Source: an uncultured Nitrososphaerota archaeon
GTDB taxonomy: Archaea; Thermoproteota; Nitrososphaeria; Conexivisphaerales; DTJL01
Direction of reading: 5' to 3'
DNA: 64,000 bases
Assembly (NCBI GenBank): GCA_963842885.1
Contig: CAWJIE010000002.1
Span: 32,001-96,000 of the forward strand
Below the pieces are notes generated by a model. The model searched no databases, was not told where the DNA came from, and saw nothing but the letters and a program-made list of their open reading frames with translations. Position numbers and translations under genes: made by a program. Of this stretch, positions 713 to 62,858 are shown piece by piece. How positions within the stretch are numbered: position 1 is the first letter of the stretch; the number at the start of each line of letters is the position of its first letter.

Positions 713-826
713 CTAGGTTTGTCTAAGGAACCTCTTCAATTGCCAAAAACAGCGGCTCTTCGTGTTTGCCTAACCTACAGGTTGGGCAGACTCAAGACCG
801 AGTCAGCCCGTTCGCAGGTCCAAGCC
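713..826 (+). repeat. Junction site, type A arm + core (copy 1)
   Basis: CTAGGTTTGTCTAAG box at 713, inverted repeat GTTTGCCTAAC-CTACAG-GTTGGGCAGAC at 764-791, then GTCAGCCC and TTCGCAGGTCCAAGCC at 811-826. Aligns with 13049-13167. Confidence 0.85.
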
Positions 827-848
827 GCTCAATACAAAAAGGAGAAGA

Positions 849-1394
849 GTGATACCTTGTCTTGGCGTGGGACGTTTGAGTAGAACGCATAGGGGCATCG
901 GAAGGGTAGTACTAGTCGGCTTCGTCGTGTTGGTGGTCCTCATTTCGATTTCAACCGTATGGGCCCTGGGGAGCTACGTGCGGAAGCCTTCGGAAGAGGG
1001 GTTCGGGATCTACTCCCTCAAGGACAATACCCTGTTGATCTCTGATGCCGACGTCCTTTCATACAATTGGACCAGTCAGGAGATGGCTATCACCGCTCAA
1101 GCCTCCGAGAGGTTGAACCAGACGGAAGACCTCTACGGTTACTTGCCAGGGTTTGTAGTCAGGGTAGATGGAGTGGAAGTGTACCGCGGTATCTTCAGAG
1201 AGATCACCATGAATGCGATACCGGCTTCTCCGAATATCTCTATAATATTCCCTTCCGTGATCCTTCCGTCTGGATCAGCAAACTACGGGGCCATCCGGTG
1301 GTTCTTCCCATTCTTTCAGCCACCGAGCGACCAACCAGCGAACAACACGAAGCTCCTTCAGTACTTCGAGAAGGCACAGAAACTAGTACACTAG
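849..1394 (+). CDS. Hypothetical membrane-anchored/secreted protein
   Basis: 181-aa ORF with an N-terminal hydrophobic helix, bracketed by junction sites. The start codon is uncertain. Confidence 0.7.
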   Translation: MIPCLGVGRLSRTHRGIGRVVLVGFVVLVVLISISTVWALGSYVRKPSEEGFGIYSLKDNTLLISDADVLSYNWTSQEMAITAQASERLNQTEDLYGYLPGFVVRVDGVEVYRGIFREITMNAIPASPNISIIFPSVILPSGSANYGAIRWFFPFFQPPSDQPANNTKLLQYFEKAQKLVH

Positions 1395-1422
1395 CAGGAA
1401 AATCGCGCCGAGCGCGGACGCT

Positions 1423-1496
1423 CCAGTCAATTAACCTACCGTTTTCAATAACACAGAGATGAACGAGGTCAGGCCAATTTTCGCAGGTCCAAGCCC
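1423..1496 (+). repeat. Junction site, type B arm + core
   Basis: CCAGTCAATTAACCTACCGTTTTCAATAACACAGAGATG...GTCAGGCC...TTCGCAGGTCCAAGCCC. Aligns with 13519-13591 and 62792-62858. Confidence 0.85.
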
Positions 1497-1587
1497 AGGC
1501 CTCTATACTGGGAGATGGATGATTGTTCAAGGACGCAAGATTGTTCCACTTAGTTTATAGCGCCAATCGAAGGCGCGAGGGACTACA

Positions 1588-1905
1588 ATGCCGAAATACG
1601 TCGTCATTTCAAATCATCCTCCCGAAAGCTGCCCTTCAGCGAATGGAGTCCTAATGCAGAGGACCAAGACGATGGAGAAGGATCTGGGTCCGTTCCTGGA
1701 GAAATACAAGGTCAAGCCGGAAGTCATACACCATCTCGATCCGGGCCACAAGATGCTCTGGGTTTTGGAAGCACCCAACGCTGAAGCCGTCAGAGACATG
1801 ATTTACGCGAGCGGCCTGTCTCAGTGGAACGACTTCGAATTCTACATGGCTTCGACCTTGGGCCAGATACTCAGCTGGACCGAGAAGCTGCAGCCTGTAT
1901 GGTAG
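1588..1905 (+). CDS. Small hypothetical protein (DUF3303/GYD-like ferredoxin fold)
   Basis: 105 aa with motifs YVVISNHPPESCP and HKMLWVLEAPNAEAV. TTTATA lies upstream at about 1554. Confidence 0.7.
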   Translation: MPKYVVISNHPPESCPSANGVLMQRTKTMEKDLGPFLEKYKVKPEVIHHLDPGHKMLWVLEAPNAEAVRDMIYASGLSQWNDFEFYMASTLGQILSWTEKLQPVW

Positions 1906-1988
1906 AGTAAACGGTCGTCAAACCCCGTTCTTTTTGCATCCTAGGAAAGCTGGGTACCGGATGGTCTGTGTCGCATTCATCTTCCACT

Positions 1989-2016
1989 GTCAGCACATTC
2001 TCGCAGGTCCAAGCCC
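1989..2016 (+). repeat. Junction site, core only
   Basis: GTCAGCACATTCTCGCAGGTCCAAGCCC. Confidence 0.85.
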
Positions 2017-2035
2017 GCGTCCTGACTGAATTCGT

Positions 2036-2118
2036 CCAATTATCAAATTGTCCTCAATAACATAAAGATGATTAACCTATTGAGGCATCAGTGTGCCTCT
2101 TTCGCTGGTTTGAACCCC
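2036..2118 (+). repeat. Type B arm with degenerate core (TTCGCTGGTTTGAACCCC) at the start of the 676-bp duplication
   Basis: CCAATTATCAAATTGTCCTCAATAACATAAAGATGA closely matches 13525-13560. Confidence 0.65.
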
Positions 2119-10335: not shown

Positions 10336-10470
10336 GGCGCCGGCTCATCTTCCCTGTGGAGAGGACCCCACCGTGTTACCGTTAGGACGCGGACTTGCAA
10401 GCCATCGCAGCAGCTCCGGACAGCACCCCATGACCCGCCAATAATCTATTCACGCGTCAGCGGGACAACG

Positions 10471-10506
10471 TTTATAATTAGAGCATCTATGTACAATTGT
10501 ACATAG
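10471..10506 (+). promoter_or_regulatory. TATA box plus perfect 20-bp palindromic operator
   Basis: TTTATAA at 10471-10477. CTATGTACAATTGTACATAG (10487-10506) is its own reverse complement. Confidence 0.7.
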
Positions 10507-10520
10507 GAGATTAGTTCGCT

Positions 10521-11292
10521 GTGAACAGCACTCGAACCGGGGTCAGGAGGAACAGAAACGCCCTAGTGACAAGGGGCCTCATCGCAGCCGTCGAATCTCT
10601 CGAAAGGCGGGGCGTGGAGCCGACCTTCAGCGAGATCCTGGCCGATCTCAGGTCGAGCGGGATCCTCTCCAACCATAGGTCGTTGAGAACCTACCTTGAT
10701 TCGCTCGTGCTTTCGGGAATCCTGAAAGTGAAAAAGGAGGAAGCGAGGCGGAAGAACGTGAGGCCGAAGGAGATTCTATTCTCTCACCCACGGACGCCCC
10801 CATGTCGAAGCCGGAGACGGCGCTTTGCTCTTCCATGGGCTCAACTGGACCATCCCGGTGAAGTCCTCGATCAAGCTGATGACGGACGAAGAAGGGGTGG
10901 CGAGGGCCCGGCTCGTAGACGGGACACTGTATGCCTCCCTTGAGGACATGGTGGTTGCTAACCTGGCGGCGAAGAGGAGGGCCGCCCTCGAAAGGGCGCT
11001 CCCCCTGTGCGCGGCGCTCCTGGCCACGTGCAGCTTCGACCCAGTCTATCTGGACAGGAGGGCCAAAGAGATGGGCGTCGGAGGGCTGGTGAAGGAGCTG
11101 CTCGATGAAATAGGCTACATCGTGTCCTCCCCCAGACCAGAGGTCGAGGACATCAGGACCCTCTACGCCGTAAGGAGACGGCTCGGGTCCCTTCGCAGGA
11201 ACGTCGCCCTTCATGACCAGGAACCGCGCTGGGACCTGCTGTCGCCTCATGAGTTGGTGGATGTGGCCGGGAAGCAGCTGGGGTTGGAGTGA
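10521..11292 (+). pseudogene. wHTH regulator / putative antitoxin split by a frameshift near 10775
   Basis: Removing one base at GAGATTCTATTC joins ORF 10521 to ORF 10825 (KEIYSLTHGRPHVEAGDGALLFHGLNW...YASLED). Confidence 0.65.
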
Positions 11293-11294
11293 AG

Positions 11295-11978
11295 ATGAAG
11301 CCCTCCCGCCCTCCCGCCAGAGTGTGGATAGGCGTCCTGGGCCGCATCCTGCCCGTCCTGTCGAGGGGAGAGGCCAACGACGTGGTGCTCTTCGGCTCTC
11401 AGGCCATGAGCGTCTACACTCCCAGGGCCCTGGCGAGCAAGGACATGGACCTCATCGTCCCGGGTATGACCCTTCGAGTCATGAGGGAGCTCTGCGACGA
11501 ACTCGCCAAGGTGGCGGTGGGGAGGCCCAGCTACGACTACCTTTCATCCGAGTACTCGGGGAGGGAGTATCCCATCTTCCATGTCTACTTCAGGCACGAC
11601 AGCGGGTATCCGATGGTCGTCGAAATCTTCCTGAACTTCCTGGGCTTCGAATCCAAGAGGCTTGCGCCCTTCCTCACCTTCAGGGAAAGGTGGGGGGCGA
11701 GGGTCCAGGTCCCGACGCCGGAGGCAATCATAGGAACGAGGTTGTCCTTCAGGCCCCCCGAGCGGATCACGCCCTTCAACGCGAGGAGGTTGTCACGTTT
11801 CATAACGGGGATGGGCAGGGGGGTCGACTGGGCTAAGGTGAACTCGTTCGTCGACGCCTTCGAGCTCAGGGCCGTAGCCACGGAGAACCTGCGGGCGCTT
11901 GCCTCAAAGCGAATCTTCATCGCCGGGACGTCCCATTTCCTCAAGGGGCAACCGGGAGACGCGCCGAACTCCGCATGA
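11295..11978 (+). CDS. Nucleotidyltransferase-superfamily protein (putative toxin)
   Basis: VVLFGSQAM...SKDMDLIV (GS...DxD), followed by VPTPEAII. Confidence 0.7.
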   Translation: MKPSRPPARVWIGVLGRILPVLSRGEANDVVLFGSQAMSVYTPRALASKDMDLIVPGMTLRVMRELCDELAKVAVGRPSYDYLSSEYSGREYPIFHVYFRHDSGYPMVVEIFLNFLGFESKRLAPFLTFRERWGARVQVPTPEAIIGTRLSFRPPERITPFNARRLSRFITGMGRGVDWAKVNSFVDAFELRAVATENLRALASKRIFIAGTSHFLKGQPGDAPNSA

Positions 11979-12079
11979 CCGTTCGTTGCGGGTAGCCACG
12001 GGCCCGCCACTTGTTGGCCCCATGGATAGCATTATGCATCGATGGGGTTAAATCCGACCTAGATTTCTGCGCTTGTGAC

Positions 12080-12505
12080 ATGGCAGCCACGCAGAGCGGG
12101 CTCCTAACCAGCCTGATAGAACTCCTGACGCCGACGGCAGCGCTCCTTACGATCGTCATCGAACTGTGGAACATGACGTCCGTAACCATAAGGCTCTTTT
12201 CGGTCATCGACCTCGTCATACTTGTCTTCGTAGCTCTCATCTGCTTCATGGAGCTGAAGTCTGAAAGGCTTGGAGACCGAGGCCTCAGCCTATCCGCGTT
12301 CTTCCTCCTGTGGCCCTTCCTCGTCCTTCTTGGTCTGGCGGTGGCTGCCCCGGTGATGTCGCTCCTGGGGATCGTCTTCATTCCCTGGAGGACGAATACG
12401 AGGGATTGGTGGGCGGGCATGGGGATCGCCTTGGCCGGGATAGTGGTGACCGGCCTGCTGGCCTGGAGGTTGGTCCTGCTGACCAAGCCGCGTCTTCGAA
12501 CCTGA
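12080..12505 (+). CDS. Hypothetical 4-TM membrane protein
   Basis: Hydrophobic ORF with a TTAAAT element upstream. Confidence 0.6.
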   Translation: MAATQSGLLTSLIELLTPTAALLTIVIELWNMTSVTIRLFSVIDLVILVFVALICFMELKSERLGDRGLSLSAFFLLWPFLVLLGLAVAAPVMSLLGIVFIPWRTNTRDWWAGMGIALAGIVVTGLLAWRLVLLTKPRLRT

Positions 12506-12559
12506 AATAGTGCTCCCACAACCCTGACCATGCTCCTCGATCGCGCTCGTGCTCTCACG

Positions 12560-12650
12560 TCGGACGCGGCGTGGCCAAGGTCGCATCCATCTGCACGAGG
12601 GCGCTGGGCGAAGGTCCGCTGCGGGTCTGAGCCCTCGGGACTACTGTGGA
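12560..12650 (+). pseudogene. Degenerate 3' remnant of the PAP2 gene
   Basis: CGTGGCCAAGGTC...AGGGCGCTGGGCGA..GTCC.CTGCGG.TCTGA matches 20100-20185. Confidence 0.7.
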
Positions 12651-12779
12651 CCCTCCGAACGATGTAAAGGGGCCACCCTGCGGCGGCGGCGGCCAACCTC
12701 GCCCGATGAGGATCCAGACGTCTTCGCCCCCCTCCCCAAAGCTCTAATAGAGTGAGCCCGCCAACGAGATGGGAAGGCC

Positions 12780-13001
12780 ATGTCGTCTGAATTCGAAAAG
12801 TTGGTGAAGAGGCTGGAGAAGCTGGAGACGAGAGTGCAGCTCGCGGAGGAGAAGCAGTCCGTGGCGGTGGAAGGGGCTCTCGGGGACGAGGAGACGAAGC
12901 TTAAGGCCGGGGAGAAGAAGAGGGTGGACCAGCTGGAGGCCAAGGTGAAAGAGCTGGAAGCGAAGCTAAAGGCCCTAGAAAAGAAGCGTGCGAAGAAGTA
13001 G
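12780..13001 (+). CDS. Small coiled-coil hypothetical protein
   Basis: 73 aa with K/E-rich heptads and host-like codon usage. Confidence 0.6.
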   Translation: MSSEFEKLVKRLEKLETRVQLAEEKQSVAVEGALGDEETKLKAGEKKRVDQLEAKVKELEAKLKALEKKRAKK

Positions 13002-13048
13002 GCCTCATCCCTTCCGGCAGGAAGCACGACGGCGGAACCATAACGAGA

Positions 13049-13167
13049 CTAGGTTTGCCTAAGGAGCCACTTCAAGACCTAAAATGAATGACTAGTAGTG
13101 TTTGTCTAAGCTACAGCTTGGGCAAACTAGAAATCGGACCAGCCCATTTCTTCGCAGGTCCAAGCCC
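13049..13167 (+). repeat. Junction site, type A arm + core (copy 2)
   Basis: CTAGGTTTGCCTAAG box, inverted repeat GTTTGTCTAAG-CTACAG-CTTGGGCAAAC at 13100-13127, core at 13151-13167. Confidence 0.85.
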
Positions 13168-13211
13168 ACGCCCGCGCTAAACTTGGAACCAGTCACGGCC
13201 ACAAAACAGAT

Positions 13212-13469
13212 TCAAGGTGATTCCTCTTGGTCTTCTTTCTTGTTCAGCTCTTTGAACATCAGAGAATTGTAGTAGGCACCAAGGAGGCCTACAACTAGCC
13301 CACAACCGCCGATCAACAGGTCCAGTGGCAATACGAAGTAATGGGGAGAGAAGAGGTAGTATGTGACCAGGGGATATCCGATTGCGAGCAAGCAAAGCAC
13401 CACTCCGACGATACCCATTATGTTGTTCCGCCTAAAATGACGAACACGAGGATATCTCTCGGCCCCCAC
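13212..13469 (-). CDS. Small 2-TM membrane protein
   Basis: 85-aa ORF that fills the space between two junction sites. Confidence 0.55.
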   Translation of the reverse strand: MGAERYPRVRHFRRNNIMGIVGVVLCLLAIGYPLVTYYLFSPHYFVLPLDLLIGGCGLVVGLLGAYYNSLMFKELNKKEDQEESP

Positions 13470-13518
13470 TACCGTAAACCCCCGGTGTCAAGAACCATCA
13501 CTATCCTAATGAGGCTTT

Positions 13519-13591
13519 CCAGTTCAATTATCAAATTGTTTTCAATAACATAGATATGAATAAGCCAGCCCGTTTTCGCAGGTCCAAGCCC
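13519..13591 (+). repeat. Junction site, type B arm + core
   Basis: CCAGTTCAATTATCAAATTGTTTTCAATAACATAGATATG...CAGCCCGTTTTCGCAGGTCCAAGCCC. Confidence 0.85.
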
Positions 13592-13755
13592 CCAAGAATC
13601 CCATCCATAGACCCAGTTGGGTCCTAGTCCTCCCGCGCCCGCCCGCCCAAAGGGGACACCTCCGTTTCTCCGGTTCTCCCCCAAAGAGATCCTTTCCTGA
13701 CGGCAACCGCAAACTTATCGGTTTTGGAATACGCCCCCTTCCCATCTGCTTCCCA

Positions 13756-14451
13756 TCAGGCTTGCCCAAGCGCGTCAACAATAAGATGCCTTTCGGCCCG
13801 CCTGAGTTCAACGTCCAAAGTTGATGGGGCAAGACTGTGGATTCCGGCTAGTTGCTTGATGCTCGTCTTCTTTGGTATATCGAAGTAACCCATGCTGTAA
13901 GCAGTGGAGAGAGCTCTCCGCTGTTTCTCTGTCATCTTGTCCATTGACGACCTTGAGAGCCTCAGGTCTTCGAGTTCCACAATCCTGTAGGGCACTCCAA
14001 CCCGATCAACCATCTTGCAGAAGCGTCTTACTATCTTCGGATTTCCAAGATACGTGATTCTGAACCTCCCATTTCTGATTTCGTATGGTGGGATGAAATA
14101 TCCGCCTATCGCAAGGAAATCCAAGAAACTGGGGGAAGCCTTCTTGAGCTCAGGCTTGAACCTCGTGAAATATGTGAAGAGATTCCCTTTTTCGTGTCGA
14201 AGCATCTCGAAGAATAGTTTGCTGCTCGTCGTTTCGCGAATCAATTCCTCCAATCTGCTTGCCGGTTCGCGGAGTTTCACCCTGAATATGAACGCAACCT
14301 CGTCAGAGAGCTCAAGGAAGTAAAGCACCTCAAACCATTCGACTTTTAGGACTTTTAGGAGGGTCGCCTCGCGGAATTTGTCCAGGTCGTTCTCCGCAAA
14401 TTCGATCGTGAGCCGGCGCATCCATGTATGTAAGAAGGTCGCCCCTTCCAT
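13756..14451 (-). CDS. HTH_10 (bacterio-opsin activator-like) transcriptional regulator
   Basis: C-terminal MTEKQRRALSTAYSMGYFDIPKK...LRRAE. Confidence 0.88.
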   Translation of the reverse strand: MEGATFLHTWMRRLTIEFAENDLDKFREATLLKVLKVEWFEVLYFLELSDEVAFIFRVKLREPASRLEELIRETTSSKLFFEMLRHEKGNLFTYFTRFKPELKKASPSFLDFLAIGGYFIPPYEIRNGRFRITYLGNPKIVRRFCKMVDRVGVPYRIVELEDLRLSRSSMDKMTEKQRRALSTAYSMGYFDIPKKTSIKQLAGIHSLAPSTLDVELRRAERHLIVDALGQA

Positions 14452-14528
14452 TTAAGGGTATAAAAGGATGGCGAATCTATTCGCATCAATGTTAAAACGC
14501 TATCATCACGAAATCAGTACGGGTTACG

Positions 14529-16124
14529 ATGTCAAGCAAGTATGATGTGGTTGTTGCCGGCGGCGGACAGCATGGGCTCATTACTGCGTGCTATCTAGCA
14601 AAGGCAGGGCTGAGCGTCTGTGTAGTGGAAAAGCTCGATGCGACGGGCGGAGGGCTCGTGACCAGGGAACTCAATGCGCCGGGATTCAAGCATGACATGG
14701 CCTCGGTTGCTCACATCTACATCCAGGCTAACCCTCTCCTTGTGAACGACGAGCTTGGACTCCTATCCAAGTATGGGCTCAAGTACATTGTCCCTACCGA
14801 ACCGGTGGTAGTAGTCTTCCCGGATGGAAGAGAGATGGTAATCTGGCGAGACGTCGATAAGACCTGTGAGTCTATCGCCCAGTTCAACAAGAAAGATGCT
14901 GAGGCTTACAGGAAGCTCTACGAATGGGCACGTCCAGGTTTGAATATGCTGATTGGTGGCATGTTTGTTCCACCCCCGCCCCTGTCAGGCATGATTTCGT
15001 TGCTCGAAGGGAGCGATTATGGGCGAGAGATGAAAAGAGGGTTGCTACTGAGCGCTTTGGATATCGCTAACGACTGGTTTGAAGGAGACGCAATAAAGAT
15101 CGCGATGCTCAGGCTCATATCTGAGCTATTGATGGCCCCGCAGACAAAGGGGACCGGACTGAACTTTTACCTCATGGTTCCCATGTTGCACGCTTACGGA
15201 TATGGGTTTGCGGAGGGAGGTGCACACGCACTCGCTGAAGCCCTGGAGCGTTGCCTCAAGGCGAATGGCGGAACGATCATGGTTAACAGTCCCATTAGGC
15301 GCTTCAAGATAGATCAGGGGAAGGCCACTGGTGTTGTATTGGAATCTGGCGAGGAGGTCCAAGCCAGCAAGCTCGTAGTCTCCAACCTAAACGTCAAGCA
15401 GATGTTTCTTGAGATGATTCCGACCGAGAATCTGCCTCCTGATGTGCCAGGGAAGGTTCGGCGGATTAAGCAAAGCGACTTCATGCCCTTCCATCAGTTA
15501 CTGGCACTGAACGAAGCGCCCAGGTTCGACACTGGCGGCATGGCCGATAGGGCCTCAGGTGTCTATCACATTTCCTCGTACAAGCTTGCAGATCTTTTGA
15601 GGGGATTCGACGACTATAGCTACGGAATCATGAATTCAGTAATGCCTTTGACCGTGTGTCAAACATTGTTTGATCCCACACGAGCGCCAAAGGGCAAGCA
15701 TACCGTGTATCTCCTTCACTTTGCCCCCGCCAGGCTGGCAGACGGAGGGCTTGAGGGATGGGATAAGATAAAGCAGAAGGCAGCTGATGACATCCTTGGG
15801 ACTGTACGCAGGCACGTCGTGAACCTGGATGACAAGAATATCGTAGGCAGAACAATATTGAGCCCGCTTGACTTCTACAAGTACAATCGTTCATGGTATG
15901 AAGGAGACTTCTGCCACTTTGGCAGCATGCTGGGCCAGCTCTTCGCGGACAGACCCCTCTCTGATTGGCCGCCCTTCAAGACCCCGATAGACAAGCTGTA
16001 CCTCACCGGTCCAAGCGCACCTGGGACTGGCGGCGGCGTAACTGGCGCAGCTGGAAGAGCCGCTGCCATGACCATCCTTCAAGACCTGGGCATTAGTTTC
16101 GACAAGGTAATCGCCGCCAAGTAG
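14529..16124 (+). CDS. FAD-dependent oxidoreductase, phytoene desaturase (COG1233) family
   Basis: YDVVVAGGGQHGL...VVE Rossmann motif and a TPIDKLYLTG C-terminal motif. Confidence 0.88.
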   Translation: MSSKYDVVVAGGGQHGLITACYLAKAGLSVCVVEKLDATGGGLVTRELNAPGFKHDMASVAHIYIQANPLLVNDELGLLSKYGLKYIVPTEPVVVVFPDGREMVIWRDVDKTCESIAQFNKKDAEAYRKLYEWARPGLNMLIGGMFVPPPPLSGMISLLEGSDYGREMKRGLLLSALDIANDWFEGDAIKIAMLRLISELLMAPQTKGTGLNFYLMVPMLHAYGYGFAEGGAHALAEALERCLKANGGTIMVNSPIRRFKIDQGKATGVVLESGEEVQASKLVVSNLNVKQMFLEMIPTENLPPDVPGKVRRIKQSDFMPFHQLLALNEAPRFDTGGMADRASGVYHISSYKLADLLRGFDDYSYGIMNSVMPLTVCQTLFDPTRAPKGKHTVYLLHFAPARLADGGLEGWDKIKQKAADDILGTVRRHVVNLDDKNIVGRTILSPLDFYKYNRSWYEGDFCHFGSMLGQLFADRPLSDWPPFKTPIDKLYLTGPSAPGTGGGVTGAAGRAAAMTILQDLGISFDKVIAAK

Positions 16125-16187
16125 CAAGATGTCACGATCTAGACAGGGGTTGTGACATGACTGCCTCCCCCTAGAAAGGCGACGGAC

Positions 16188-48072: not shown

Positions 48073-49160
48073 CTAAGAAGTTCGTCGATGTGTTTGTCCC
48101 AGTTCACACCCGAATAGTTCTCCTTGAAGAGACGACGTGCCTGTTCCGACATGAAAGCGAGATGGTCCCGAACGTACCCCAACGCATAGATCCACGCTTC
48201 GGTAGGTGCATTCACAGATACCAAATAGCCTGTCTTCTTGTGTCGAACGAATTCTGGTAGGCCACCTGTGTCGCTCGATATGACAGGAGTGCCGTACATA
48301 TAGGAACCAAGGATCGCCGCACTCTGGGTCTCACGCAGGTACGGGGTGACTACAGCCAAGCTCTTTCGCATGAGCTCCCCAAAATACTCATCTGAAATGA
48401 CCTTGCCATCAACCAAGGTCAAGTTCTGGACCGTCCTAATGCTTTCGTCGGGTATCCTTAGTCTTGATATCACCAGAAATTGGAAGCCTAGGCGACGGTC
48501 ATTTGACAGCTCTGCCATGCCCATGAATGTGCTGAACCCCTTTGCCGGGACTATGGGGCCAACGAAGGTAACGTATTCCCTGGGAAGTTGCATAAGCTGG
48601 GCACCCAAGTCTTCGTACATCAAAGGAATGAGCAGTCTCTTTCCGGAATAATCAGGGAACCTCAGTTGCATCAGGCATGAAGCATACCCAGATGATACGA
48701 CTGCCTTGCCGGATTGATCAAGCATAAACGATTGTGCCCTGTCGAACAAGGTCAACCAGATTGCGGCCAGAATCCCATGTTTGGTCTTGCTCGCTACAAA
48801 CGGTTCATGTAGATGATACACAAACTGAGCTCCGTGCACCGCGGCAAGACGAGCGATGTAATGGTTGAGCGGGTGGTAGTTGAACATATAGACCATGGCA
48901 GGCGGCGATTCTCTGAATGCCCGCGATAGTTTCCCATAATTCCCCGCGTTGAGCATATCAAGCATCATGCTACCGATGCCCCTAGAACGCCCGACAAGCG
49001 TCGTCTTCTCCATCACATCCGCTGGAAGCAACGGGAGGTATTCTGCTCCAAACAGATACCTGACCCGGAACCCTCTCTTCTCAAGGGCATCCCCCAGGGC
49101 ACAGCAAAGTGACTTGTAGACGGGACTGAATTGGAGACTACCGATGTAGTAGGTCAGCAG
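47874..49160 (-). CDS. GT4-like glycosyltransferase (both ends uncertain)
   Basis: The frame is open upstream of the called TTG (YYIGSLQFSPVYKSLC) and contains PVISSDTGGLPE. The C-terminus overlaps the next gene by about 200 bp. Confidence 0.75.
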   Translation of the reverse strand: MLTYYIGSLQFSPVYKSLCCALGDALEKRGFRVRYLFGAEYLPLLPADVMEKTTLVGRSRGIGSMMLDMLNAGNYGKLSRAFRESPPAMVYMFNYHPLNHYIARLAAVHGAQFVYHLHEPFVASKTKHGILAAIWLTLFDRAQSFMLDQSGKAVVSSGYASCLMQLRFPDYSGKRLLIPLMYEDLGAQLMQLPREYVTFVGPIVPAKGFSTFMGMAELSNDRRLGFQFLVISRLRIPDESIRTVQNLTLVDGKVISDEYFGELMRKSLAVVTPYLRETQSAAILGSYMYGTPVISSDTGGLPEFVRHKKTGYLVSVNAPTEAWIYALGYVRDHLAFMSEQARRLFKENYSGVNWDKHIDELLSWALTLCLKTSTTARKCLSTLGVEIVQGRDTWAWTFGPREGQGSWPMPLDCRSETVPSFLSLAVTA

Positions 49161-49235
49161 TGCGACTCCCCCGGGTTAGCATGTCGACCCAGCTGTGCGC
49201 ACTCATTCTGTGGTCCACGCTACTTCCTAAGTAAT

Positions 49236-50420
49236 TCAGCAACTAGGCATCCCTGCTCCTTTGAGGTCAGCATTCTTCTCGACGTACCCTCTTCCGCTTT
49301 GACCATATCTGGCCGCGAGAGATGGGTCCTGCGCTATGGTCAGTATGGCACTGGCGAGGGCATCTGCATCGCCGGGGGCTACGACAAGACCCGATTGGGA
49401 TTGGCTGACAAACAAGCCAGGCATACCTCTGGAACAGACAACAATAGGCTTGCCGGCAGCCTGGTATTCGTACAACTTCGAAGAGATTCCCTTTTCCGTG
49501 TCTCCTAAGCCTGCAAGGGGTTGGATGAGGATGTCTGCATCGCACATCAGCCGAGCAGCTTGAGCCCTCGAAACTACTTCCCTGACCATTCTGACGTTAC
49601 TCAGTCTCCTCCCTGCGATTTCGCTATCAATCTGCTCGGCGCGTTCTCCGTCTCCCCTGAGCGTGAATGTGATATCTCTGTGGCCTCTGAGCAGTTCAGC
49701 AGCTCGAAGTACTTGTCCGAAATCGTAGGCCGAAGAAAAGGCACCGATATACAGGACGCTGACCGTTTCCTGACGATTCTTGGATGTTCTGCCTCCACGA
49801 AACAAAGCAAGGTCAACGCCTCCTGGAATGACGACCAACTTCGACGTGCTGACATCATACTTGTGGGAGATCACGTCGACGTAGGCTGGGCTAATGGGGG
49901 CCATATAATTCGAAAGACCGTAGGCTAACCTTGCCACAGACTCAGCTACTCTTTGAAGCAGACCAGAGTTCAGCATCCCCAAGTCGTAAAGCGACTCCGG
50001 CCAAAGGTCATCTACGTTCAGAATCATCCGGCACCTGAATCTTGTCCGGTAGACCAAAGCCGGAAAGGCCACGAGTACCTGAGGGTTTGAAGCGAACACG
50101 CCGTCCACCCCATCTAAGAATGCGATTGGGAACAGGGACGACAGCATAAAGCAGAAGAACAGGACGAAGCGCCTGACAAGGCCTTTGGATGCCAGAGGGG
50201 GGACATAGGTGCGTATGACATCGATGCGGTTCATCCGTTCGAACACCAAGGCTCTGTGCCTGTAGCTCTTCGGGACGTTCCCTGAAGGATAGTGAGGGAA
50301 ACCCGCAATCACCGTCACCTTGACACCGTTGGCGGCAAGGCCTTTGGCGACGTTGAACGCCCTGGTCGCGCCGCCACCAAGGTCTGGTGGATATATCTCC
50401 GAGAGTATCAGCACGTGCAT
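49236..50420 (-). CDS. GT4 glycosyltransferase, WbuB-like
   Basis: Motifs YPPDLGG, PHYPSG, DLWPES and SKLYEYQAAGKP. Confidence 0.9.
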   Translation of the reverse strand: MHVLILSEIYPPDLGGGATRAFNVAKGLAANGVKVTVIAGFPHYPSGNVPKSYRHRALVFERMNRIDVIRTYVPPLASKGLVRRFVLFFCFMLSSLFPIAFLDGVDGVFASNPQVLVAFPALVYRTRFRCRMILNVDDLWPESLYDLGMLNSGLLQRVAESVARLAYGLSNYMAPISPAYVDVISHKYDVSTSKLVVIPGGVDLALFRGGRTSKNRQETVSVLYIGAFSSAYDFGQVLRAAELLRGHRDITFTLRGDGERAEQIDSEIAGRRLSNVRMVREVVSRAQAARLMCDADILIQPLAGLGDTEKGISSKLYEYQAAGKPIVVCSRGMPGLFVSQSQSGLVVAPGDADALASAILTIAQDPSLAARYGQSGRGYVEKNADLKGAGMPSC

Positions 50421-51503
50421 CTAATCACGTTGTATACTCTCTATGATCGCGCTATTCTGTCGAATCCAAGTGAGAGTAAGCAAAAGACCGTTGTGAAATG
50501 CAGTCCTCGGATTATAGCCCAGCAAGGCTCTCGCCTTTTCGATGGAGGCTCTTCGCCGACCAGACTTATCCCAGTCTCTCCTGCCACGGAAAACCACCCC
50601 TCCCTTGCTCTCGGTGAGCTCATTGACCTCATTCGCGAGGTCCAGGATCTTCGTCTCGGTCCCTGACGCCAGGTTCACTGCTTCGCCAACGGCTTCAGGG
50701 AGGACACCCATTCGGAGAGACCCGTCCACTACGTCATCTACATACGTGAAGTCCCTGGTCTCTTCACCCGTCCCGGTGATCGGCAGTGGCTTCCCGTGCA
50801 TCGCCCACCAGATGAAATTCGGAATCACGTCTCTGTATTTCCCTGGCACCTCTCCCGGACCAAAGACGTTGAAGTACCTGCAAATGGCAACGGGGAATCG
50901 ATAGTAGTCATGGTAGTAATTGCAGTAGAGTTCGCCCACAAGCTTGTTCATCTGATAAGGAGTGTCAAGATGGAGAGTGACGAAGCTCTCCTCCAGGGGA
51001 AGCGGCGCGTTGCTTCCATAGACAGAGCAACCCGACGACGCGTAAACGACCCTCTCCGCCCCGGCCTTTCTCGACAGCTCGAGGATGCGAAGGGTGCCAA
51101 GCCCGTTGACCATCAGGTCCGATTCGGGATGCTCGACGCTGTTCTGGTTGGCGAAGTGAGCTGCAAGATGGAAAACGACCTGTGGGCTCTGAGCGAAGAC
51201 CTCCCCAGTCTTCCCTTCGTCTAGAATGCTGCCCCTGACGAACTCCACCCGAGGGTCCTTGGGTATGTTCCACTCATAGGAGGCCGAGAGGTCATCAAGG
51301 ACGATTATCTTCTTGGTGCCCGTGCCAAGCAAAGCCTTGGTCAGGTTGCTCCCAATCATCCCGGCACCTCCCGTAATGAGGACCGTCTTCCCTGCGTAGG
51401 AATCCAGGACCTCCTGCGAGCTTGGCGCTATCTCATTCACCAATTCCGTAAATCTTCCTGAACCACTTGACCGTATTGTCGATGCCCTCTTCGGGTTCGA
51501 CAT
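50421..51503 (-). CDS. NAD-dependent epimerase/dehydratase
   Basis: Motifs TGGAGMIG, YQMNK, RYFNVFGP and RDFTYV. Confidence 0.92.
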   Translation of the reverse strand: MSNPKRASTIRSSGSGRFTELVNEIAPSSQEVLDSYAGKTVLITGGAGMIGSNLTKALLGTGTKKIIVLDDLSASYEWNIPKDPRVEFVRGSILDEGKTGEVFAQSPQVVFHLAAHFANQNSVEHPESDLMVNGLGTLRILELSRKAGAERVVYASSGCSVYGSNAPLPLEESFVTLHLDTPYQMNKLVGELYCNYYHDYYRFPVAICRYFNVFGPGEVPGKYRDVIPNFIWWAMHGKPLPITGTGEETRDFTYVDDVVDGSLRMGVLPEAVGEAVNLASGTETKILDLANEVNELTESKGGVVFRGRRDWDKSGRRRASIEKARALLGYNPRTAFHNGLLLTLTWIRQNSAIIESIQRD

Positions 51504-54675: not shown

Positions 54676-54991
54676 GCTTCGGCTGCGCTATGGAGTCGAA
54701 CCACATCAGAGTCTCTCTTTGGCGTTACAATCTCGGAGCCGAACGCATCCTTTAACCTTATCGAATCGAGAGGGCATGAGCTTGTCACACATGAGGGAAG
54801 AGTTGAGGTCTCTGCGGCCAGTTGTCTCAAACGAAAGCTGGAGGACGTCAACACCCCTCGGTGATGATTTCGGTGCTGGTGCTGCGAGCGAACTTTAGGT
54901 TTTGTAGTCCAGTACTCGCCTGGAAACTTGGCAATGTAGTAGCCCGGGAAGGTATCAAAAGGATAAGTTCGATTATACAGCGATTATCCTT
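54676..54991 (-). ncRNA. Candidate structured non-coding element with tRNA-like T-arm, copy 1
   Basis: 316-bp ungapped repeat of 58236-58551, with 36 mismatches by manual count. The minus strand has TGTGG-TTCGACT-CCATA inside TTCGGCT...AGCCGAA. Confidence 0.5.
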
Positions 54992-55001
54992 CGGTACGGG
55001 T

Positions 55002-58235: not shown

Positions 58236-58551
58236 GCTTCGGCTGCGCTATGGAGTCGAACCACATCAGATACTCTCTTTGGCGTTACAATCTCGGAGCC
58301 GGACGCGTCCTTTAACCTTATCGAATCGAGACGGCGTGAACCTGTCACACATGGGGGAAGAGCTGAAACCTCTACGGCCTGCTGTTTCAAGCGAAAGCTG
58401 GGGGACGTCAATACCCCTCGGTGATGATTTCGGTGCTGGTGCTGCGGGCGAACTTAAGGTCTTGTAGTTCAGTACTGGCCCGTCAACTTGGCAATGTGGT
58501 AGCCCGGGAAGGCGTCGAAAGGAAAAGTTCGATCATACAGAGTTTATCCTT
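58236..58551 (-). ncRNA. Candidate structured non-coding element, copy 2
   Basis: Direct repeat of 54676-54991 at offset 3560; the T-arm is invariant. Confidence 0.5.
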
Positions 58552-58724
58552 GCTGTAGGAACTGGAGGGATTAGCACCTGTCTGGGTTCATCGTTAAATT
58601 CGTCTCATCAGGATTCCAGCTTCTTGAATCAACGCCCAGGTGCTGAGAGTGGTAGACAGGAAGGCTTTGCGCCTATGCCTTTAAGATAGAATCATTAGAC
58701 GCGCCATTAACGTTTGGAGAGGGT

Positions 58725-60311
58725 TCATGGAATCCTCTCTTCGATCGATCGAGGCCTTGGCTGGCGGCGCCTTCTTAAGAGGAAGAAACCGGCCGCGACG
58801 ACCACGACTGCCACTGCCACCCCGCCCAGGATCAGCGTCGTAGTCGTAGTCGGCGTTGTTAGAGGGCCGCCCAAGGCGAACGGAGAACCCGATAGGGCCG
58901 CGACGAGAATGTCACCGCAGACCATGGTGCCGGGGGTGAAAGTTATGTTGGCTGCCTGGATCCATGAACCGTTCGAGTAATAGTCGATCACCGTGTTGGC
59001 ATCCGCATTGACATTTGACATGCAAAGGTGTGCGGTCCCTCCCGAGATTCCAGTTATGGCCAAGTCATAAAATCCGAATGAAGTGCTGTTGGACCCGTTG
59101 ACGCTCAATCCGCCCGTGTTCGTGGGCTGGCTGGTCAACTGCGAGGCGCTTATCTCCGCAGTAGACCCGGTCGTATCTGAGATGCTCACGTTCATTCCTA
59201 TGTTCATAAAGATCGCGGTGGAGGTAGATCCTGAAGTGACCGTGGCAGACGCCTGCTGGGTGGATTGGCAAGTTTCGACTATCGTTGGATTTCCCGTCAT
59301 CGTCCCCATATTGTTTATGACACCTCCGCCGTTGTTGAAGAGATAACCGGTGTTGTCGATCGTAGCTCCGGCGTTGTTATTCAGCGTACCGAGGATGCCC
59401 ATCGTATTGAAGTTGTTAAAGACACCATAGTTGTCGAAGGTCTCAGTGGTCCAGATGCCATTAGCTCCGTAGTTGTCAAAGGTACCGTAGTTATTGATCG
59501 TCGCAGATACAACTCCGTAGCTGTCAAGGGTACCATAGTTATTGATTACAACTCCAGGTGCAGCTCCGACATCGAAGAGTAGCGTGCCACTTTCGACTTC
59601 GACAGTGCCACCCACCTGGTTGTCAAGCGTGCCACCATTCCCATTCCCCATGCTGATTCCGGACTGGTCATCCAGAAGACCGGTGTTAGAAAAGACGCCG
59701 CCGATGTGCAGCCCAAATGGTTCGGGGGCGGAAGTGACAAACGTGCCGGAATTATCGACCGTGCCGTCCGTATTGATGCTAAAACCTCCAGAATTTGAAA
59801 TCGTGCCACTGTTAATTATCGTGCCATCAACGCTAGTAAAGTTGGACGTGTCAACCGTACCCGAATTGTTGGACGTGTCAATCGTACCCGAATTCAAGAG
59901 CGTGCTTCCTGGGCCTACGTTGAGCTGCCCACTGCTGTCAATCACTCCTCCGCTATCGACTGACACTACGCCAGCCGATACGTTAGATTCGTACACAGAA
60001 AATAAGCCAGAATTGTCTACAATGCCTTGAATAGTGATCATGTGATCGGTACCCAGGCTGGTGCCCGAGTCTATTTGGATGGTCGTTCCGGATGGAATTG
60101 TACTGCCAGGATACCCCACCTCACAATCATTTGTCGAATCATTCCAATTACCATTGAGCGGAGCCGCCACACAGCTATCGGCGTTCAATACGATTGTCGA
60201 CTGGGCATGCACAACTGGAGATGTAACTACGGGACCCAGGAACCCGGAGGCCGCCAGAAGAGCAAGCAGAAGGACCGCCTTCTTGTGCATTCCCAACCAT
60301 TGGACTCTCAT
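58725..60311 (-). CDS. Membrane-anchored surface protein with Gly/Asn-rich repeats, paralogue 2
   Basis: Same architecture and same SIEERIP C-terminus as 16906-18426. Confidence 0.8.
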   Translation of the reverse strand: MRVQWLGMHKKAVLLLALLAASGFLGPVVTSPVVHAQSTIVLNADSCVAAPLNGNWNDSTNDCEVGYPGSTIPSGTTIQIDSGTSLGTDHMITIQGIVDNSGLFSVYESNVSAGVVSVDSGGVIDSSGQLNVGPGSTLLNSGTIDTSNNSGTVDTSNFTSVDGTIINSGTISNSGGFSINTDGTVDNSGTFVTSAPEPFGLHIGGVFSNTGLLDDQSGISMGNGNGGTLDNQVGGTVEVESGTLLFDVGAAPGVVINNYGTLDSYGVVSATINNYGTFDNYGANGIWTTETFDNYGVFNNFNTMGILGTLNNNAGATIDNTGYLFNNGGGVINNMGTMTGNPTIVETCQSTQQASATVTSGSTSTAIFMNIGMNVSISDTTGSTAEISASQLTSQPTNTGGLSVNGSNSTSFGFYDLAITGISGGTAHLCMSNVNADANTVIDYYSNGSWIQAANITFTPGTMVCGDILVAALSGSPFALGGPLTTPTTTTTLILGGVAVAVVVVAAGFFLLRRRRQPRPRSIEERIP

Positions 60312-60575: not shown

Positions 60576-60628
60576 TAGCCCGGGAAGGCATCGAAAGGAA
60601 AAGTTCGATCATACGGCGTCTATCCTTC
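60576..60628 (-). repeat. Partial third copy (about 50 bp) of the 316-bp element
   Basis: TAGCCCGGGAAGGCATCGAAAGGAAAAGTTCGATCATAC...TATCCTT matches 58500-58551. Confidence 0.75.
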
Positions 60629-60746
60629 CGGGAGCAAGACCGATTTGCCGAGGTACCAAGGTAATTAGACATTTCCTTTGCTATAGGAAAGTGAAGTTGT
60701 TTTGAGTCGGAAGCGTAGTTACAGTCCCCAGACCTAAGTGATTTAA

Positions 60747-61310
60747 GTGGGGGACATGGGGCCCACTCTGGCGATTGACGTGCAGAGAAGAACGGTTGGG
60801 ATAGGGCTAGTCGTCTTCGTAATCGGGATTGCATTGGTCATCGGCGGCGCCCTCGGAGCGCTCGGTTCAGTAAATATCAACAGGACATTCACCCAGCCGC
60901 AGCCCGGGGAATATGTCTCGGCCGAGATAATGCTGAACACCACCTCAGATCTTGTGGTGTCATCTCCCGCTTCTGTGGGTGGAATCATCTATGCCCAAGA
61001 CCTGAACCAGGTGAACTCGACGGACGTCAGTGCGTACGCCATCCCCTACAACTCGACGGGAGCGGGAAGCGCCATCTACAAGTCGCTCAGCGGAGACTTC
61101 TATTACGTTGCTTTCTCCTCAGCCCAGCCCGGCAGTACCATCGTAGCTACGCCTCTGAGGTCAGCTGCGCGCGGGTACGGAGCGCTCGTCCTGCTAGGAA
61201 TAGTCTGCGTGATAGTGGGAATCGTAGTCGCGGCGGTGGGCGCGTTCCGCAAGAGCAAGGCGCCAGTTCACGAAACGGCCGAAGCATGGATAGAGTCGCA
61301 GAAGGCTTAA
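60747..61310 (+). CDS. Hypothetical membrane protein (N- and C-terminal TM)
   Basis: 187-aa ORF with TTTAAG upstream. Confidence 0.7.
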   Translation: MGDMGPTLAIDVQRRTVGIGLVVFVIGIALVIGGALGALGSVNINRTFTQPQPGEYVSAEIMLNTTSDLVVSSPASVGGIIYAQDLNQVNSTDVSAYAIPYNSTGAGSAIYKSLSGDFYYVAFSSAQPGSTIVATPLRSAARGYGALVLLGIVCVIVGIVVAAVGAFRKSKAPVHETAEAWIESQKA

Positions 61311-61584
61311 GCGAATCTTCACGCAGACGCCCTCCGCAGAGTGGCACGCCCCGAAACGACGCGCATCTTTTGGTGCCGATGCGCAGCTCGACCTTGTGGG
61401 GTTCGGAATCGCCCACGTTGAACTCATACTTCCTTGGGCCCAGCCACAAGTGTTGGCTGTCTGTTAGTTCCTTGCCATCGACTTCGACCTTGATCCTGCC
61501 GAGCCAGAGACCGCCTGAGTGGTCGACAGCGACGACATGTCTTTCCTTGGTGCCTATCGTGAACCTCGCGCTACCCACATCCAC
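61147..61584 (-). CDS. Small beta-rich hypothetical protein (3' end doubtful)
   Basis: The first ~70 aa look protein-like (KERHVVAVD...IKVEVDGKE...YEFNVGDSEPH); the tail overlaps a convergent gene. Confidence 0.4.
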   Translation of the reverse strand: MDVGSARFTIGTKERHVVAVDHSGGLWLGRIKVEVDGKELTDSQHLWLGPRKYEFNVGDSEPHKVELRIGTKRCASFRGVPLCGGRLREDSLKPSATLSMLRPFRELAPCSCGTRPPPRLRFPLSRRLFLAGRALRTRAQLTSEA

Positions 61585-61622
61585 TCTATCGGTATGCCGA
61601 ACCGCTATTTACGGGCCCCAAT

Positions 61623-61866
61623 TCACAGCTCAACCATCTCTTTCAATTCTACACATTCTTGTAGCTCAACTCGTTCCTGTAACTCAACACGTTCTTGTAG
61701 TTCGACGCATTCCTGAAGTCCAACTCGTTCTTGTAATTCAACTCATTCTTGAAATTCAACACGTTCCTGTAATTCAACTCGTTCCTGAAGCTCAACTCGT
61801 TCCTGTAGTCCAATTCGTTCCTGTAATTCAACTCGTTCCGTCTGTTCAACGCGAACTCGTATTTCA
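61623..61866 (-). repeat. 18-bp tandem repeat (~12 units); decayed coding repeat (VELQER)n
   Basis: The + strand unit is CAACTCGTTCCTGTAATT. Variation is mostly synonymous in the minus-strand frame GTT GAA TTA CAG GAA CGA. There is one CGA>TGA stop at 61743-61745. Confidence 0.85.
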
Positions 61867-61890
61867 GTTTAATCCACGCTACCACCACCA

Positions 61891-61906
61891 TTCGCAGACC
61901 AAGCCC
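61891..61906 (+). repeat. Degenerate junction core
   Basis: TTCGCAGACCAAGCCC followed by ACGCCCG, as at 13168. Confidence 0.7.
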
Positions 61907-61938
61907 ACGCCCGAGATGGCTGATTGAGGAAACCGGCT

Positions 61939-62748
61939 TTATTTGACTATGAAGTACAGAAGGACCAATTGTCCCCATTCGTCACCGCCCGCCATGGTGT
62001 AAAACCCTGGGGCGAACTTTTGCACTTGACTCGGTGGGTAGTTGTAATTCAGATATGTGCCTTGCAAGGGGAACGATCCCGAGACGGGAGCTGTCCAATT
62101 GTTTCCATATGGCTCCCATGTCTTGTTTCCTGAAGGTTGCCAGTACTCAAAGGCGGTGGCGTTGTCGCTCAGGGGCTGAAAGACGAAATATCCGACAGAA
62201 AGAGGAAGGGAGGCTGTCACTCGCGGGATGGTGATTAATGCTTGCGCAGATGAGACATTATCGGGTACATAGTAGCCGCTATAGATGGCAAGCGCCATCG
62301 GAGTGAGGTAAAGGTCTGTCGGAAAGGGTTCCCCACCTGGAAAAGGCAATGGGATGCTCGTGTAGTTGGTTGCCCACCAACTACTCGTGACGTTGTTCGT
62401 CGAGAAGAGGGTGTTCGTTTCGCTCATGGTGACCATTATGGCTCCTCCACTTGGAACCGAAGTTGAGTTGATGGTCAGGCTAAGCTTCAATCCAGTAGAA
62501 GTGCTCGTGACGCTTGTTGTATTGGTCAAGCTGGAAGGATTGAGAGGATACGAGATTGCGCCTGTATGGTTAGGCGCAAGGACATACGCTGCGGCTCCAA
62601 CCAAGAGGACTGCCAACAAGGCGACCGCGACTACTCCGTATGGCGCCAGCAGTCGCCTCCGCTTGGGTGGCAATTCGACGTTGACACTCTGGCCGAGGCC
62701 TTGGCCTGACACAGATGATTGGTACACAAGACTCGGATATAACGCCAT
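61939..62748 (-). CDS. Hypothetical membrane-anchored secreted protein
   Basis: TM helix after KRRR, S/T-rich, C-terminal GGDEWGQLVLLYF; bracketed by junction cores. Confidence 0.7.
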   Translation of the reverse strand: MALYPSLVYQSSVSGQGLGQSVNVELPPKRRRLLAPYGVVAVALLAVLLVGAAAYVLAPNHTGAISYPLNPSSLTNTTSVTSTSTGLKLSLTINSTSVPSGGAIMVTMSETNTLFSTNNVTSSWWATNYTSIPLPFPGGEPFPTDLYLTPMALAIYSGYYVPDNVSSAQALITIPRVTASLPLSVGYFVFQPLSDNATAFEYWQPSGNKTWEPYGNNWTAPVSGSFPLQGTYLNYNYPPSQVQKFAPGFYTMAGGDEWGQLVLLYFIVK

Positions 62749-62791
62749 ACCTGTGGACAGCCCCTCCTCGGCCCAGCACCCTTGTCCTATC

Positions 62792-62858
62792 CCAGTTAAC
62801 CTATTGTTTTCAATGACACAACGATGTACCGTCAGCCCATCTTCGCAGGTCCAAGCCC
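62792..62858 (+). repeat. Junction site, type B arm + core
   Basis: CCAGTTAACCTATTGTTTTCAATGACACAACGATG...GTCAGCCCATCTTCGCAGGTCCAAGCCC. Confidence 0.85.

Follow-up and report, generated by a model that had tools for sequence, protein, structure and literature searches.

A conserved 17-mer as the probable exchange joint of gene cassettes in one genus of Conexivisphaerales

Introduction

Integrons are the textbook bacterial device for collecting and reshuffling accessory genes. The pdif modules are gene modules bounded by a short site, with the enzyme encoded elsewhere; a dif-type site has two arms in inverted orientation, separated by a 6-bp spacer, and a pdif module lies between inverted copies of such a site. 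The tycheposon islands of Prochlorococcus are arrays that re-use one attachment (att) site of a tyrosine integrase. The repetitive extragenic palindromes (REPs) of enterobacteria are palindromic sequences that lie in either orientation, and shuffled cassettes are not bounded by them. Insertion sequence (IS) elements of the IS110 family target multi-copy repeats such as REPs, and IS1111-type elements insert into the attC sites of integrons. Here, a 17-mer, TTCGCAGGTCCAAGCCC, termed M, is described in a 64,000-nucleotide stretch of DNA (the window) from the metagenome-assembled genome (MAG) of an uncultured archaeon of the Conexivisphaerales. Within one genus of these archaea, M very probably forms the joint where discrete gene cassettes enter, leave and replace one another.

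In the available portion of PMC9668308, the archaeal integrons reported so far are all of the canonical IntI/attC kind. The accessible part of PMC6563490 gives a median length of 17 bp for the att sites of thaumarchaeal integrases and describes tyrosine-recombinase elements that build arrays by re-using one site. Supplements aside, the titles and abstracts on archaeal integrons, Conexivisphaerales and thaumarchaeal integrated mobile genetic elements (iMGEs) hold no description of M or of such arrays that we could find, and the words integron, cassette and transposase do not occur in 10.1101/2025.10.01.679748.

The window is C2:32001-96000 of the source assembly, designated G000 (2.03 Mb, 11 contigs). 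G001 to G004 are genomes of four other species of the same genus, and G005 is a sister-genus genome that lacks M. The completeness of G000 to G004 ranges from 59 to 95%. Genes of G000 are calls based on open reading frames (ORFs) made in this analysis (2336 calls, 82% coding). Copies of M were counted at up to three mismatches in the window and at up to two mismatches genome-wide. M-bearing loci carry L-numbers (L203, L214 and so on), and 94 of them were clustered alongside the G000 arrays. Positions given without a contig are those of the window.

Results

The 17-mer and its surroundings

The window contains seven copies of M, starting at 811, 1480, 2000, 13151, 13575, 16788 and 62842. Two of these differ from the 17-mer at one base, and the other five match it exactly. 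All seven lie on the + strand and none on the − strand, compared with a mean of 0.28 and a maximum of 2 copies in 100 dinucleotide shuffles. A preliminary description, made from the letters of the window alone, had listed the same seven starts in one orientation, the third of them misplaced by one base (2001). It had also named three degenerate copies. One of these, at 61891-61906 (+), proves to be a genuine copy that has lost one base and carries one substitution, and the 16-mer match is unique. The words at the other two, 2101 and 18725/18727, match M at 12 and 11 of 17 positions, respectively, and are the sole such variants in the genome. They stand at the start of a host-like segment of 680 bp that is present twice, at 2103-2782 and 18727-19406 (93-96% identity), and closes both arrays on the right side. 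From their sequence, these two words appear to be M-like boundaries, unproven as copies.

M is embedded in a conserved unit of about 30 bp. When all genomic copies are aligned, the unit reads (c)AGCCCA, zero to four T, M, ACG and a weaker yCy. Across 247 distinct instances, drawn from metagenome contigs as well as from four species, conservation spans about −7 to +23; it is inflated within the 17-mer itself, where the same positions served to find the copies. The flanks reported earlier, GTCAGCCCA(T1-4) ahead of the core and ACG behind it, are seen in the alignments. In G003, the upstream box is largely lost, and the 17-mer plus ACGCC is retained. M has no dyad symmetry except in the central GGTCC. 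M cannot be coding sequence, as the T-run differs in length between copies and homology ends at the site.

Four modules often lie upstream of M: A, an AT-rich 45-mer; B, a hairpin; C, a 35-mer; and D, which is rarer. All four are also found without M. In some cassettes, a box like the archaeal TATA element directly follows M and may act as the cassette's own promoter-like element.

The copies of the window differ in these surroundings. The copy at 811-827 (+) has one mismatch (last base G), with module B (764-791) and GTCAGCCCG upstream. The exact copy at 1480-1496 (+), preceded by module A (1439-1462), and the copy at 2000-2016 (+), with one mismatch (first base C), are the left and right joints of a cassette designated X. 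A second array is opened by the exact copy at 13151-13167 (+), with module B (13100-13127) upstream, and continues with exact copies at 13575-13591 (+), preceded by module A (13536-13559), and at 16788-16804 (+). Near the right end of the window, the degenerate copy at 61891 is followed by an exact copy at 62842-62858 (+) with module A (62804-62827) upstream. A module B hairpin at 63806-63833 (+) has no adjoining M.

Homology breaks at the core

Cassettes common to G000 and G002 resemble each other from M to M, and their neighbours differ. Segment 2221-4391 of G002:C112 corresponds to C2 26692-28864 of G000 (87.6% over 2176 bp), and each of the two segments is bounded by M on the left and on the right. 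Further shared cassettes are G002:C69 302-824 with C8 4315-4848 (88%), G002:C93 6348-6950 with C8 5500-6108 (90%), and G002:C51 3961-4538, which has counterparts both at C2 98992-99573 and at C4 335705-336279. Cassette X (1480-2022) recurs at 93-96% on four G002 contigs (C3, C69, C112 and C121), where the similarity stops at M on both sides. At its right end, the cassette keeps ...CTGTCAGCCCAT, followed by M and then by three unrelated downstream contexts in G000 and G002. At its left end, ACGCCTCGATACTGGG is kept after M, behind three unrelated upstream contexts. The junction alignments show ...GTCAGCCCAT at one border of a cassette and ACGCCTC... at the opposite border, both retained with the cassette. 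As the ends of cassette X are constant and the outer contexts vary, the exchange falls within the core. In G001:C20, M occupies the same place after the ortholog of gene 12735-13004, but five other cassettes follow.

Recent events give a similar picture. Sequences at least 96% identical contain 52 non-redundant internal homology breaks, 27 of them in array-bearing loci. In 16 of these, each partner has an M no more than 40 nt from the break, whereas 5.7% of positions are that close to M; the count retains some reciprocal rows and represents about a dozen independent pairs. M accounts for 16 of the 19 module-associated breaks, although modules A and B are longer. One clean pair is L203 and G003:C27, which share 99.96% identity over 2767 bp on one flank and 100% over 1971 bp on the other. 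G003:C27 holds a 310-bp cassette between two copies of M where L203 has a single M. A single-nucleotide polymorphism directly after the core places the exchange inside TTCGCAGGTCCAAGCCCA. The preliminary description had proposed that the copies are recombination or attachment sites delimiting cassettes, and had suggested looking for orthologous cassettes in differing contexts and for empty and filled alleles that break at the core. Both were found, and they support the proposal.

Conservative site-specific recombination by an enzyme acting in trans would account for these breaks, with a probability of roughly one half. Four observations favour it. Between species whose genes diverge by 9-17%, the core remains unchanged while the sequence on either side of it drifts. 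The breaks fall predominantly at M, even though there are longer repeats. M is found on about 250 unrelated cassettes. Finally, the length of the site fits the thaumarchaeal att sites, and the arrays fit the re-use of one site, as far as both are described in the accessible part of PMC6563490. Other observations weigh against it. No recombinase is conserved with the site across species, and the lack of dyad symmetry outside GGTCC is unusual for the cores of tyrosine or serine recombinases. Module A is the break point in two to three recent events. L214 and G000 have two adjacent cassettes in swapped order, with breaks at both A and M, and a 333-bp indel between L158 and L213 has its boundary at the 5' edge of the site, where the two copies have diverged. 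Breaks outside M fit general recombination at any short repeat.

The latter breaks lead to a more tentative explanation, in which general host machinery recombines at a portable homology tag of 20-30 bp and thereby deletes, swaps and captures cassettes by homologous or microhomology-mediated recombination. The word would then be uniform through concerted evolution and through the spread of only those cassettes that share the tag. The breaks at module A, the indel that ends at the edge of the unit and not in the core, and the lack of a dedicated recombinase conserved across four species all suit this explanation, and the clean 310-bp indel is equally expected from recombination between 26-bp direct repeats. 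Sulfolobus is able to recombine with a few tens of bases of homology. A mere tag does not, however, account for the predominance of M over the longer modules A and B. Nor does it explain the origin of the word in so many unrelated cassettes. In G003, moreover, the core consensus is identical while its flanks have drifted, pointing to a sequence-specific constraint. When the arrays at 1-2900 and 13100-18800 are searched for in G003, only junction repeats no longer than about 80 nt match at more than 76% identity.

Under site-specific recombination, the 17-mer would be the core of a non-palindromic site of about 22-30 bp, (c)AGCCCA(T)n-TTCGCAGGTCCAAGCCC-ACGyC, that serves as the crossover point between mobile cassettes in the genus. 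Each joint would hold one copy of the site, and the cassettes would often carry a promoter-like box plus an optional 3' module A, B, C or D. Recombination between two copies would insert a circularised cassette at a resident copy, and the same reaction would excise and reorder cassettes. It would automatically yield direct, co-oriented arrays whatever the direction of the cargo genes. The enzyme would act in trans and may be a dedicated recombinase. By analogy, it would most likely be a tyrosine integrase of co-resident integrative elements, since thaumarchaeal integrases use att sites of this length.

Polarity of the arrays

G000 contains 64 copies of M, of which 43 are on the + strand and 21 on the − strand, in separate co-oriented clusters. 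The earlier statement that inverted copies are absent thus holds inside the window and not for the genome. Sixty of the 64 copies are intergenic, in a genome that is 82% coding. The scan of the whole genome and of its sister genomes, as had been suggested, gives copies that are clustered and locally co-oriented. Among adjacent pairs of M at most 10 kb apart, 41 of 44 are co-oriented and 3 are opposite (a genic match with two mismatches, C4:81364, was dropped beforehand). Every module within 5 kb of an M shares its orientation (A 32/32, B 19/19, C 15/15 and D 3/3, or 69/69). The spacing of M ranges from 167 to 7816 bp, with a median of 1327 bp. Cassettes are 0.17-7.8 kb in size and hold zero to six genes in either direction: 5 of 41 cassettes have no gene, 18 have one, 9 have two and 9 have three or more. 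Each genome has 15-20 arrays.

The genes follow no such order. The gene upstream of M has the same direction in 34 cases and the opposite direction in 24; for the downstream gene, the numbers are 26 and 34. All four combinations of flanking-gene direction are present (21, 13, 12 and 12), and the distance from M to the next gene ranges from 16 to more than 1100 nt. Polarity is a property of the array, not of the flanking genes. A promoter, a terminator or a transcription factor site, the last having been raised earlier as a site at a fixed distance from TATA boxes, is rejected, as M keeps neither a fixed direction nor a fixed distance to genes.

More broadly, M could be a chromosomal or regulatory binding site, for example Ter- or KOPS-like, that merely coincides with gene boundaries. 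As the sole role of M this is largely refuted and very unlikely. M is indeed strongly conserved and polar. Two arrays also converge at about 104 kb of C2, and the orientation flips at 337/341 kb of C4, about 3 kb from an Orc1/Cdc6 gene. Yet no flip accompanies a second Cdc6 gene (C3, 234 kb), which is surrounded by a run of + copies, and the turn of the GC skew at about 26 kb of the window has + copies on both sides. The copies number only about 60, are confined to accessory islands and keep no constant relation to genes, and the recombination breaks map to them.

M is not the terminal inverted repeat of an IS element or of a miniature inverted-repeat transposable element (MITE), another possibility named in the preliminary description. 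Adjacent pairs are same-oriented in 41 cases and opposite in 3, and the window contains no inverted repeats of 40 nt or longer. A related idea is that M and modules A to D are small expanding intergenic repeats, of the MITE kind or of the kind of REPs and bacterial interspersed mosaic elements (BIMEs), which insert strand-specifically and give only a secondary look of cassettes. The modules do form mosaic combinations (A-M, B-M, C-M, M-C and B alone), 4 A and 10 C copies are more than 5 kb from any M, and module B is present or absent at the same joint between G000 and G001. Module C serves as the target of an IS110-family element, and multi-copy repeats are targets of this family in other cases too. 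This idea is nevertheless improbable. Inverted pairs and terminal inverted repeats are missing, M is not palindromic, and a Y1 transposase gene is found in just two of the five genus genomes, beside TnpB. Above all, the insertion of repeats would not explain whole cassettes that recur with other neighbours.

Taxonomic range

The four other species of the genus have 30, 65, 67 and 5 copies of M. The core consensus is identical among species whose conserved genes are 83-91% identical. In 36 genomes of other genera, 0-3 copies were found, the same as with a reversed-pattern control. Across 185,579 species' genomes (596 Gb), more than one exact copy per stretch occurs only in records of Conexivisphaerales/Nitrososphaerota MAGs, and the single exact matches outside those records are, by estimate, about the number expected by chance. 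Contigs of peat and soil metagenomes carry up to 10 copies each. No sequencing run, of RNA or of DNA, was listed as containing 12700-19100. IMG/VR yields eight single exact matches, by estimate about chance for a 17-mer in such a collection; a virus or plasmid carrying the site is rejected on this ground.

Two of the 11 contigs of G000, C3 (M at 24) and C9 (M at 190), begin less than 200 nt from an M. In G002, several contigs terminate within a shared cassette. It seems that assemblies tend to be interrupted at the arrays, which would be expected if cassette content varied among the strains of the sample.

Candidate enzymes

The window contains no gene matching PF00589, PF00239, PF01548, PF01797 or PF07282, in agreement with the earlier remark that no recombinase gene is visible. 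Tyrosine recombinases (PF00589) number four in G000 and four in G003; they are present in G001, G002 has one clear match, and no match was found in G004. Those of the four species are only 22-43% identical to one another. No integrase of G000 lies within about 10 kb of an M with at most two mismatches, and its PF00589 and PF00239 matches, searched across the whole genome, lie outside the arrays. The 138 proteins of the G000 array regions match 156 Pfam families, and the 25 largest of these include no PF00589 or resolvase family; IS110 is the only recombinase family among the 25. G003 has two integrase genes inside M-to-M segments (395 aa in C59 and 476 aa in C35), one of them beside a DUF3987 protein. 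The copies of M are the only long direct repeats that flank the integrase element of C35.

Other gene families were followed as well. Resolvase, Y1 and TnpB genes show no association with the arrays. The Y1 gene (RAYT-like) lies beside a TnpB gene in the two genomes that have it, as in an IS605-type element. Paralog enrichment in G000 yields only IS110 and cargo, and ORF clustering of the M-bearing loci with the G000 arrays yields only cargo-type families: parts of ABC transporters, cyclic nucleotide (cNMP)-binding proteins, helix-turn-helix (HTH) proteins, adenylate cyclases with tetratricopeptide repeats (TPR), beta-propellers and surface proteins.

The IS110-family element is 1.27 kb long and has inverted ends of about 15 bp. 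It is found at C3:189232-190506, C3:1400-2680 and C7:18990-20270, and one copy is broken. All three G000 copies lie between two M, where they interrupt module C at an identical position, behind CCAGCA, and point the same way. The family has three copies in G000 and two in G002; it was not found in G001, G003 or G004, and multi-copy IS elements are often lost from MAGs. The left flank of the target is found again, as its reverse complement, in the non-coding region upstream of the element's gene, which would suit a putative guide (bridge/seek) RNA. The same region has two 8-mers of the M unit, a weak signal (5 found, some of them overlapping, versus 1.1 expected). The ends of the element bear no relation to M. 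IS110 is therefore unlikely as the cassette enzyme, being undetected in three species and having ends unlike M. The former reason also makes it more likely that the element inhabits the junctions than that it created them.

A bolder variant of site-specific recombination is an IntI-independent "integron" in Nitrososphaerota, in which an unrecognised recombinase would read a 22-bp non-palindromic word and shuffle self-expressed cassettes at many loci. This is doubtful at present. Its enzyme could belong to a new protein family or be an RNA-guided enzyme of the DEDD/IS110 type acting in trans.

A small gene near the arrays provides a lead only. It encodes a basic C2HC Zn-finger protein of 50 aa (G000 C2:104005-104157, equal to L227:11006-11158) and lies in the 700 bp between converging arrays. 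The last 28 nt of the gene resemble the reverse complement of M plus its usual following sequence (75% over 28 nt). The family has two to three copies in each of the five genus genomes and weak matches (37%) in two sister genera, and 3 of 12 of its loci have an M within 1.5 kb. The gene could be a remnant of the original target gene or a DNA-binding partner.

Other classes of site

Several described classes of site were compared with M. A six-frame search of G000 to G004 with the IntI model TIGR02249, in genomes of the completeness given above, reached at best 52 bits against a cut-off of 265, and G000 and G002 gave no match at all. Sixty-three junctions (−75 to +8) were folded with RNA parameters, each against 60 mononucleotide shuffles. 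Mean z values of −0.37 (top strand) and −0.29 (bottom strand) give no sign of an attC-like fold, and only module B forms a hairpin. The consensus contains no conserved GTTRRRY or RYYYAAC and no R''/R' pair. An integron is rejected on these grounds and because genes face both ways and many cassettes hold several genes.

A dif or pdif site is rejected as well. M has no inverted 11-bp arms, its only self-complementary part being GGTCC, and no conserved tyrosine recombinase was found in the genus. ARAGORN finds no tRNA in the window. Its 49 genome-wide calls, some with implausibly long introns, include none that adjoins an array; the nearest tRNA is at least about 1 kb from an M, at a chance-like match. 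An att site derived from a tRNA gene is rejected accordingly. The tRNA-like look of 2101-2200 is explained by the start of the duplicated host-like 680-bp segment. A known RNA is rejected as well: Rfam gives no match at gathering score in the whole window, and the only match in 1900-2400 is a sub-threshold snoRNA-like one (E = 2).

Cassettes and other features of the window

The gene calls between consecutive copies of M agree with the cassette contents listed earlier. The first cassette (828-1479) holds one gene at 849-1394 (+), which encodes a protein of 181 aa without a Pfam family. Cassette X (1497-1999) likewise holds one gene, 1588-1905 (+), for a protein of 105 aa without a Pfam family. 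In the second array, a small cassette (13168-13574) contains an ORF at 13212-13469 (−; 85 aa) and is followed by a multi-gene cassette (13592-16787). The latter encodes an HTH_10 regulator (13756-14451, −) and an FAD-dependent oxidoreductase (14529-16124, +), with further ORFs at 16188-16445 (+) and 16458-16772 (+). It has no DNA match in G001 to G005 beyond junction repeats. The last unit of the second array (16805-18726) holds a gene for 506 aa at 16906-18426 (−), which has a paralog at 58725-60311 (528 aa, about 85% nucleotide identity). Near the right end, the cassette at 61907-62841 contains one gene, 61939-62748 (−; 269 aa). The first copy of the 680-bp segment holds a 120-aa Zn-finger-like ORF at 2284-2646 (−).

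Cassette regions have a GC content of 49-55%, compared with 60-64% in neighbouring host-like DNA, and are AT-richer as claimed before; low GC is, however, also found in an island without M. This island, at 36000-51500, is the largest low-GC region of the window (47.5-54%). It encodes seven GT4 glycosyltransferases, two epimerase/dehydratases, a methyltransferase and a protein of 1405 aa without a Pfam family, all on the − strand.

Other repeats are present near the arrays. At least nine tandem units of 18 nt (60-78% identity to a reference copy) occupy 61612-61866, directly upstream of the M at 61891 and inside the overlapping ORFs 61286-61927 (+) and 61649-61978 (−). An intergenic direct repeat of 42-62 nt (TAGCCCGGGAAGG...) lies at 54940-55001, 58500-58561 and 60576-60637 and at C5:98781, and flanks the gene for 528 aa at 58725-60311. 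With just four copies genome-wide, it is rejected as a second junction family. A short repeat family (...GCTCCTATCCCGGC...) is found at 18665-18699, just ahead of the second copy of the 680-bp segment, and in at least six copies elsewhere, at C2:128240-132187 and C10:7989-15446. Finally, about 2.4 kb between an M48 peptidase gene and gene 12735-13004 (10347-12726) is missing from G004:C51, where the flanks abut. The break points of this difference carry no M.

Discussion

The joints described here do an integron-like job, structurally, in one archaeal genus of soil and peat, with 30-67 of them per genome. Their site is of a different kind, their cassettes are organised differently, and no known enzyme is attached to them. 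If a dedicated recombinase exists, the site-specific system would be a new one, and its long asymmetric target would make it attractive for genome engineering; gene flow in Nitrososphaerota would also gain a new route. If none exists, a portable homology tag of 20 bp alone would sustain an integron-like cassette economy, which would bear on how attC-type systems could have arisen. Either way, M is a practical marker in metagenomes for the flexible gene pool of these uncultured archaea.

The arrays resemble integrons and clusters of attC sites lacking integron integrases (CALINs) in their small, unrelated, mostly unannotatable cassettes, in their co-oriented sites and in the shuffling between genomes, as far as these traits are described in the available portion of PMC9668308. 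Most arrays have no adjoining recombinase, here as in CALINs. In addition, an IS110-family element has inserted in the junction region, as IS1111-attC elements do. In contrast, M is a conserved primary sequence without an attC-like hairpin, and no IntI exceeds the cut-off. Cargo faces both ways, 18 of the 41 cassettes hold two or more genes, and cassettes appear to carry their own promoter-like boxes. Each genome has 15-20 arrays instead of one platform. The earlier wording "analogous to integrons" is an analogy only, because the defining parts of an integron were tested and not found.

Thaumarchaeal iMGE arrays, to the extent covered by the accessible part of PMC6563490, share with the present arrays the short direct repeats, the side-by-side units in one orientation, and islands that are lower in GC and variable between strains; the two G003 integrases in M-to-M segments add to the likeness. 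Here, however, nearly all units are without an integrase and tiny (median 1.3 kb), M does not lie in a tRNA gene or at the 3' end of a gene, and one site serves many loci in four species.

Like pdif modules, the cassettes are gene modules bounded by a short recombination site, with an enzyme that would be encoded elsewhere. Unlike dif-type sites, M lacks dyad symmetry and its copies are direct, and no conserved Xer-type gene was found in the genus. With REPs and BIMEs, the joints share an intergenic mosaic of short modules that is genus-specific and targeted by IS110, whereas M is not palindromic and RAYT-type genes are not associated with the arrays. By its defining features, the system belongs neither to integrons and CALINs nor to tandem integrase-borne elements.

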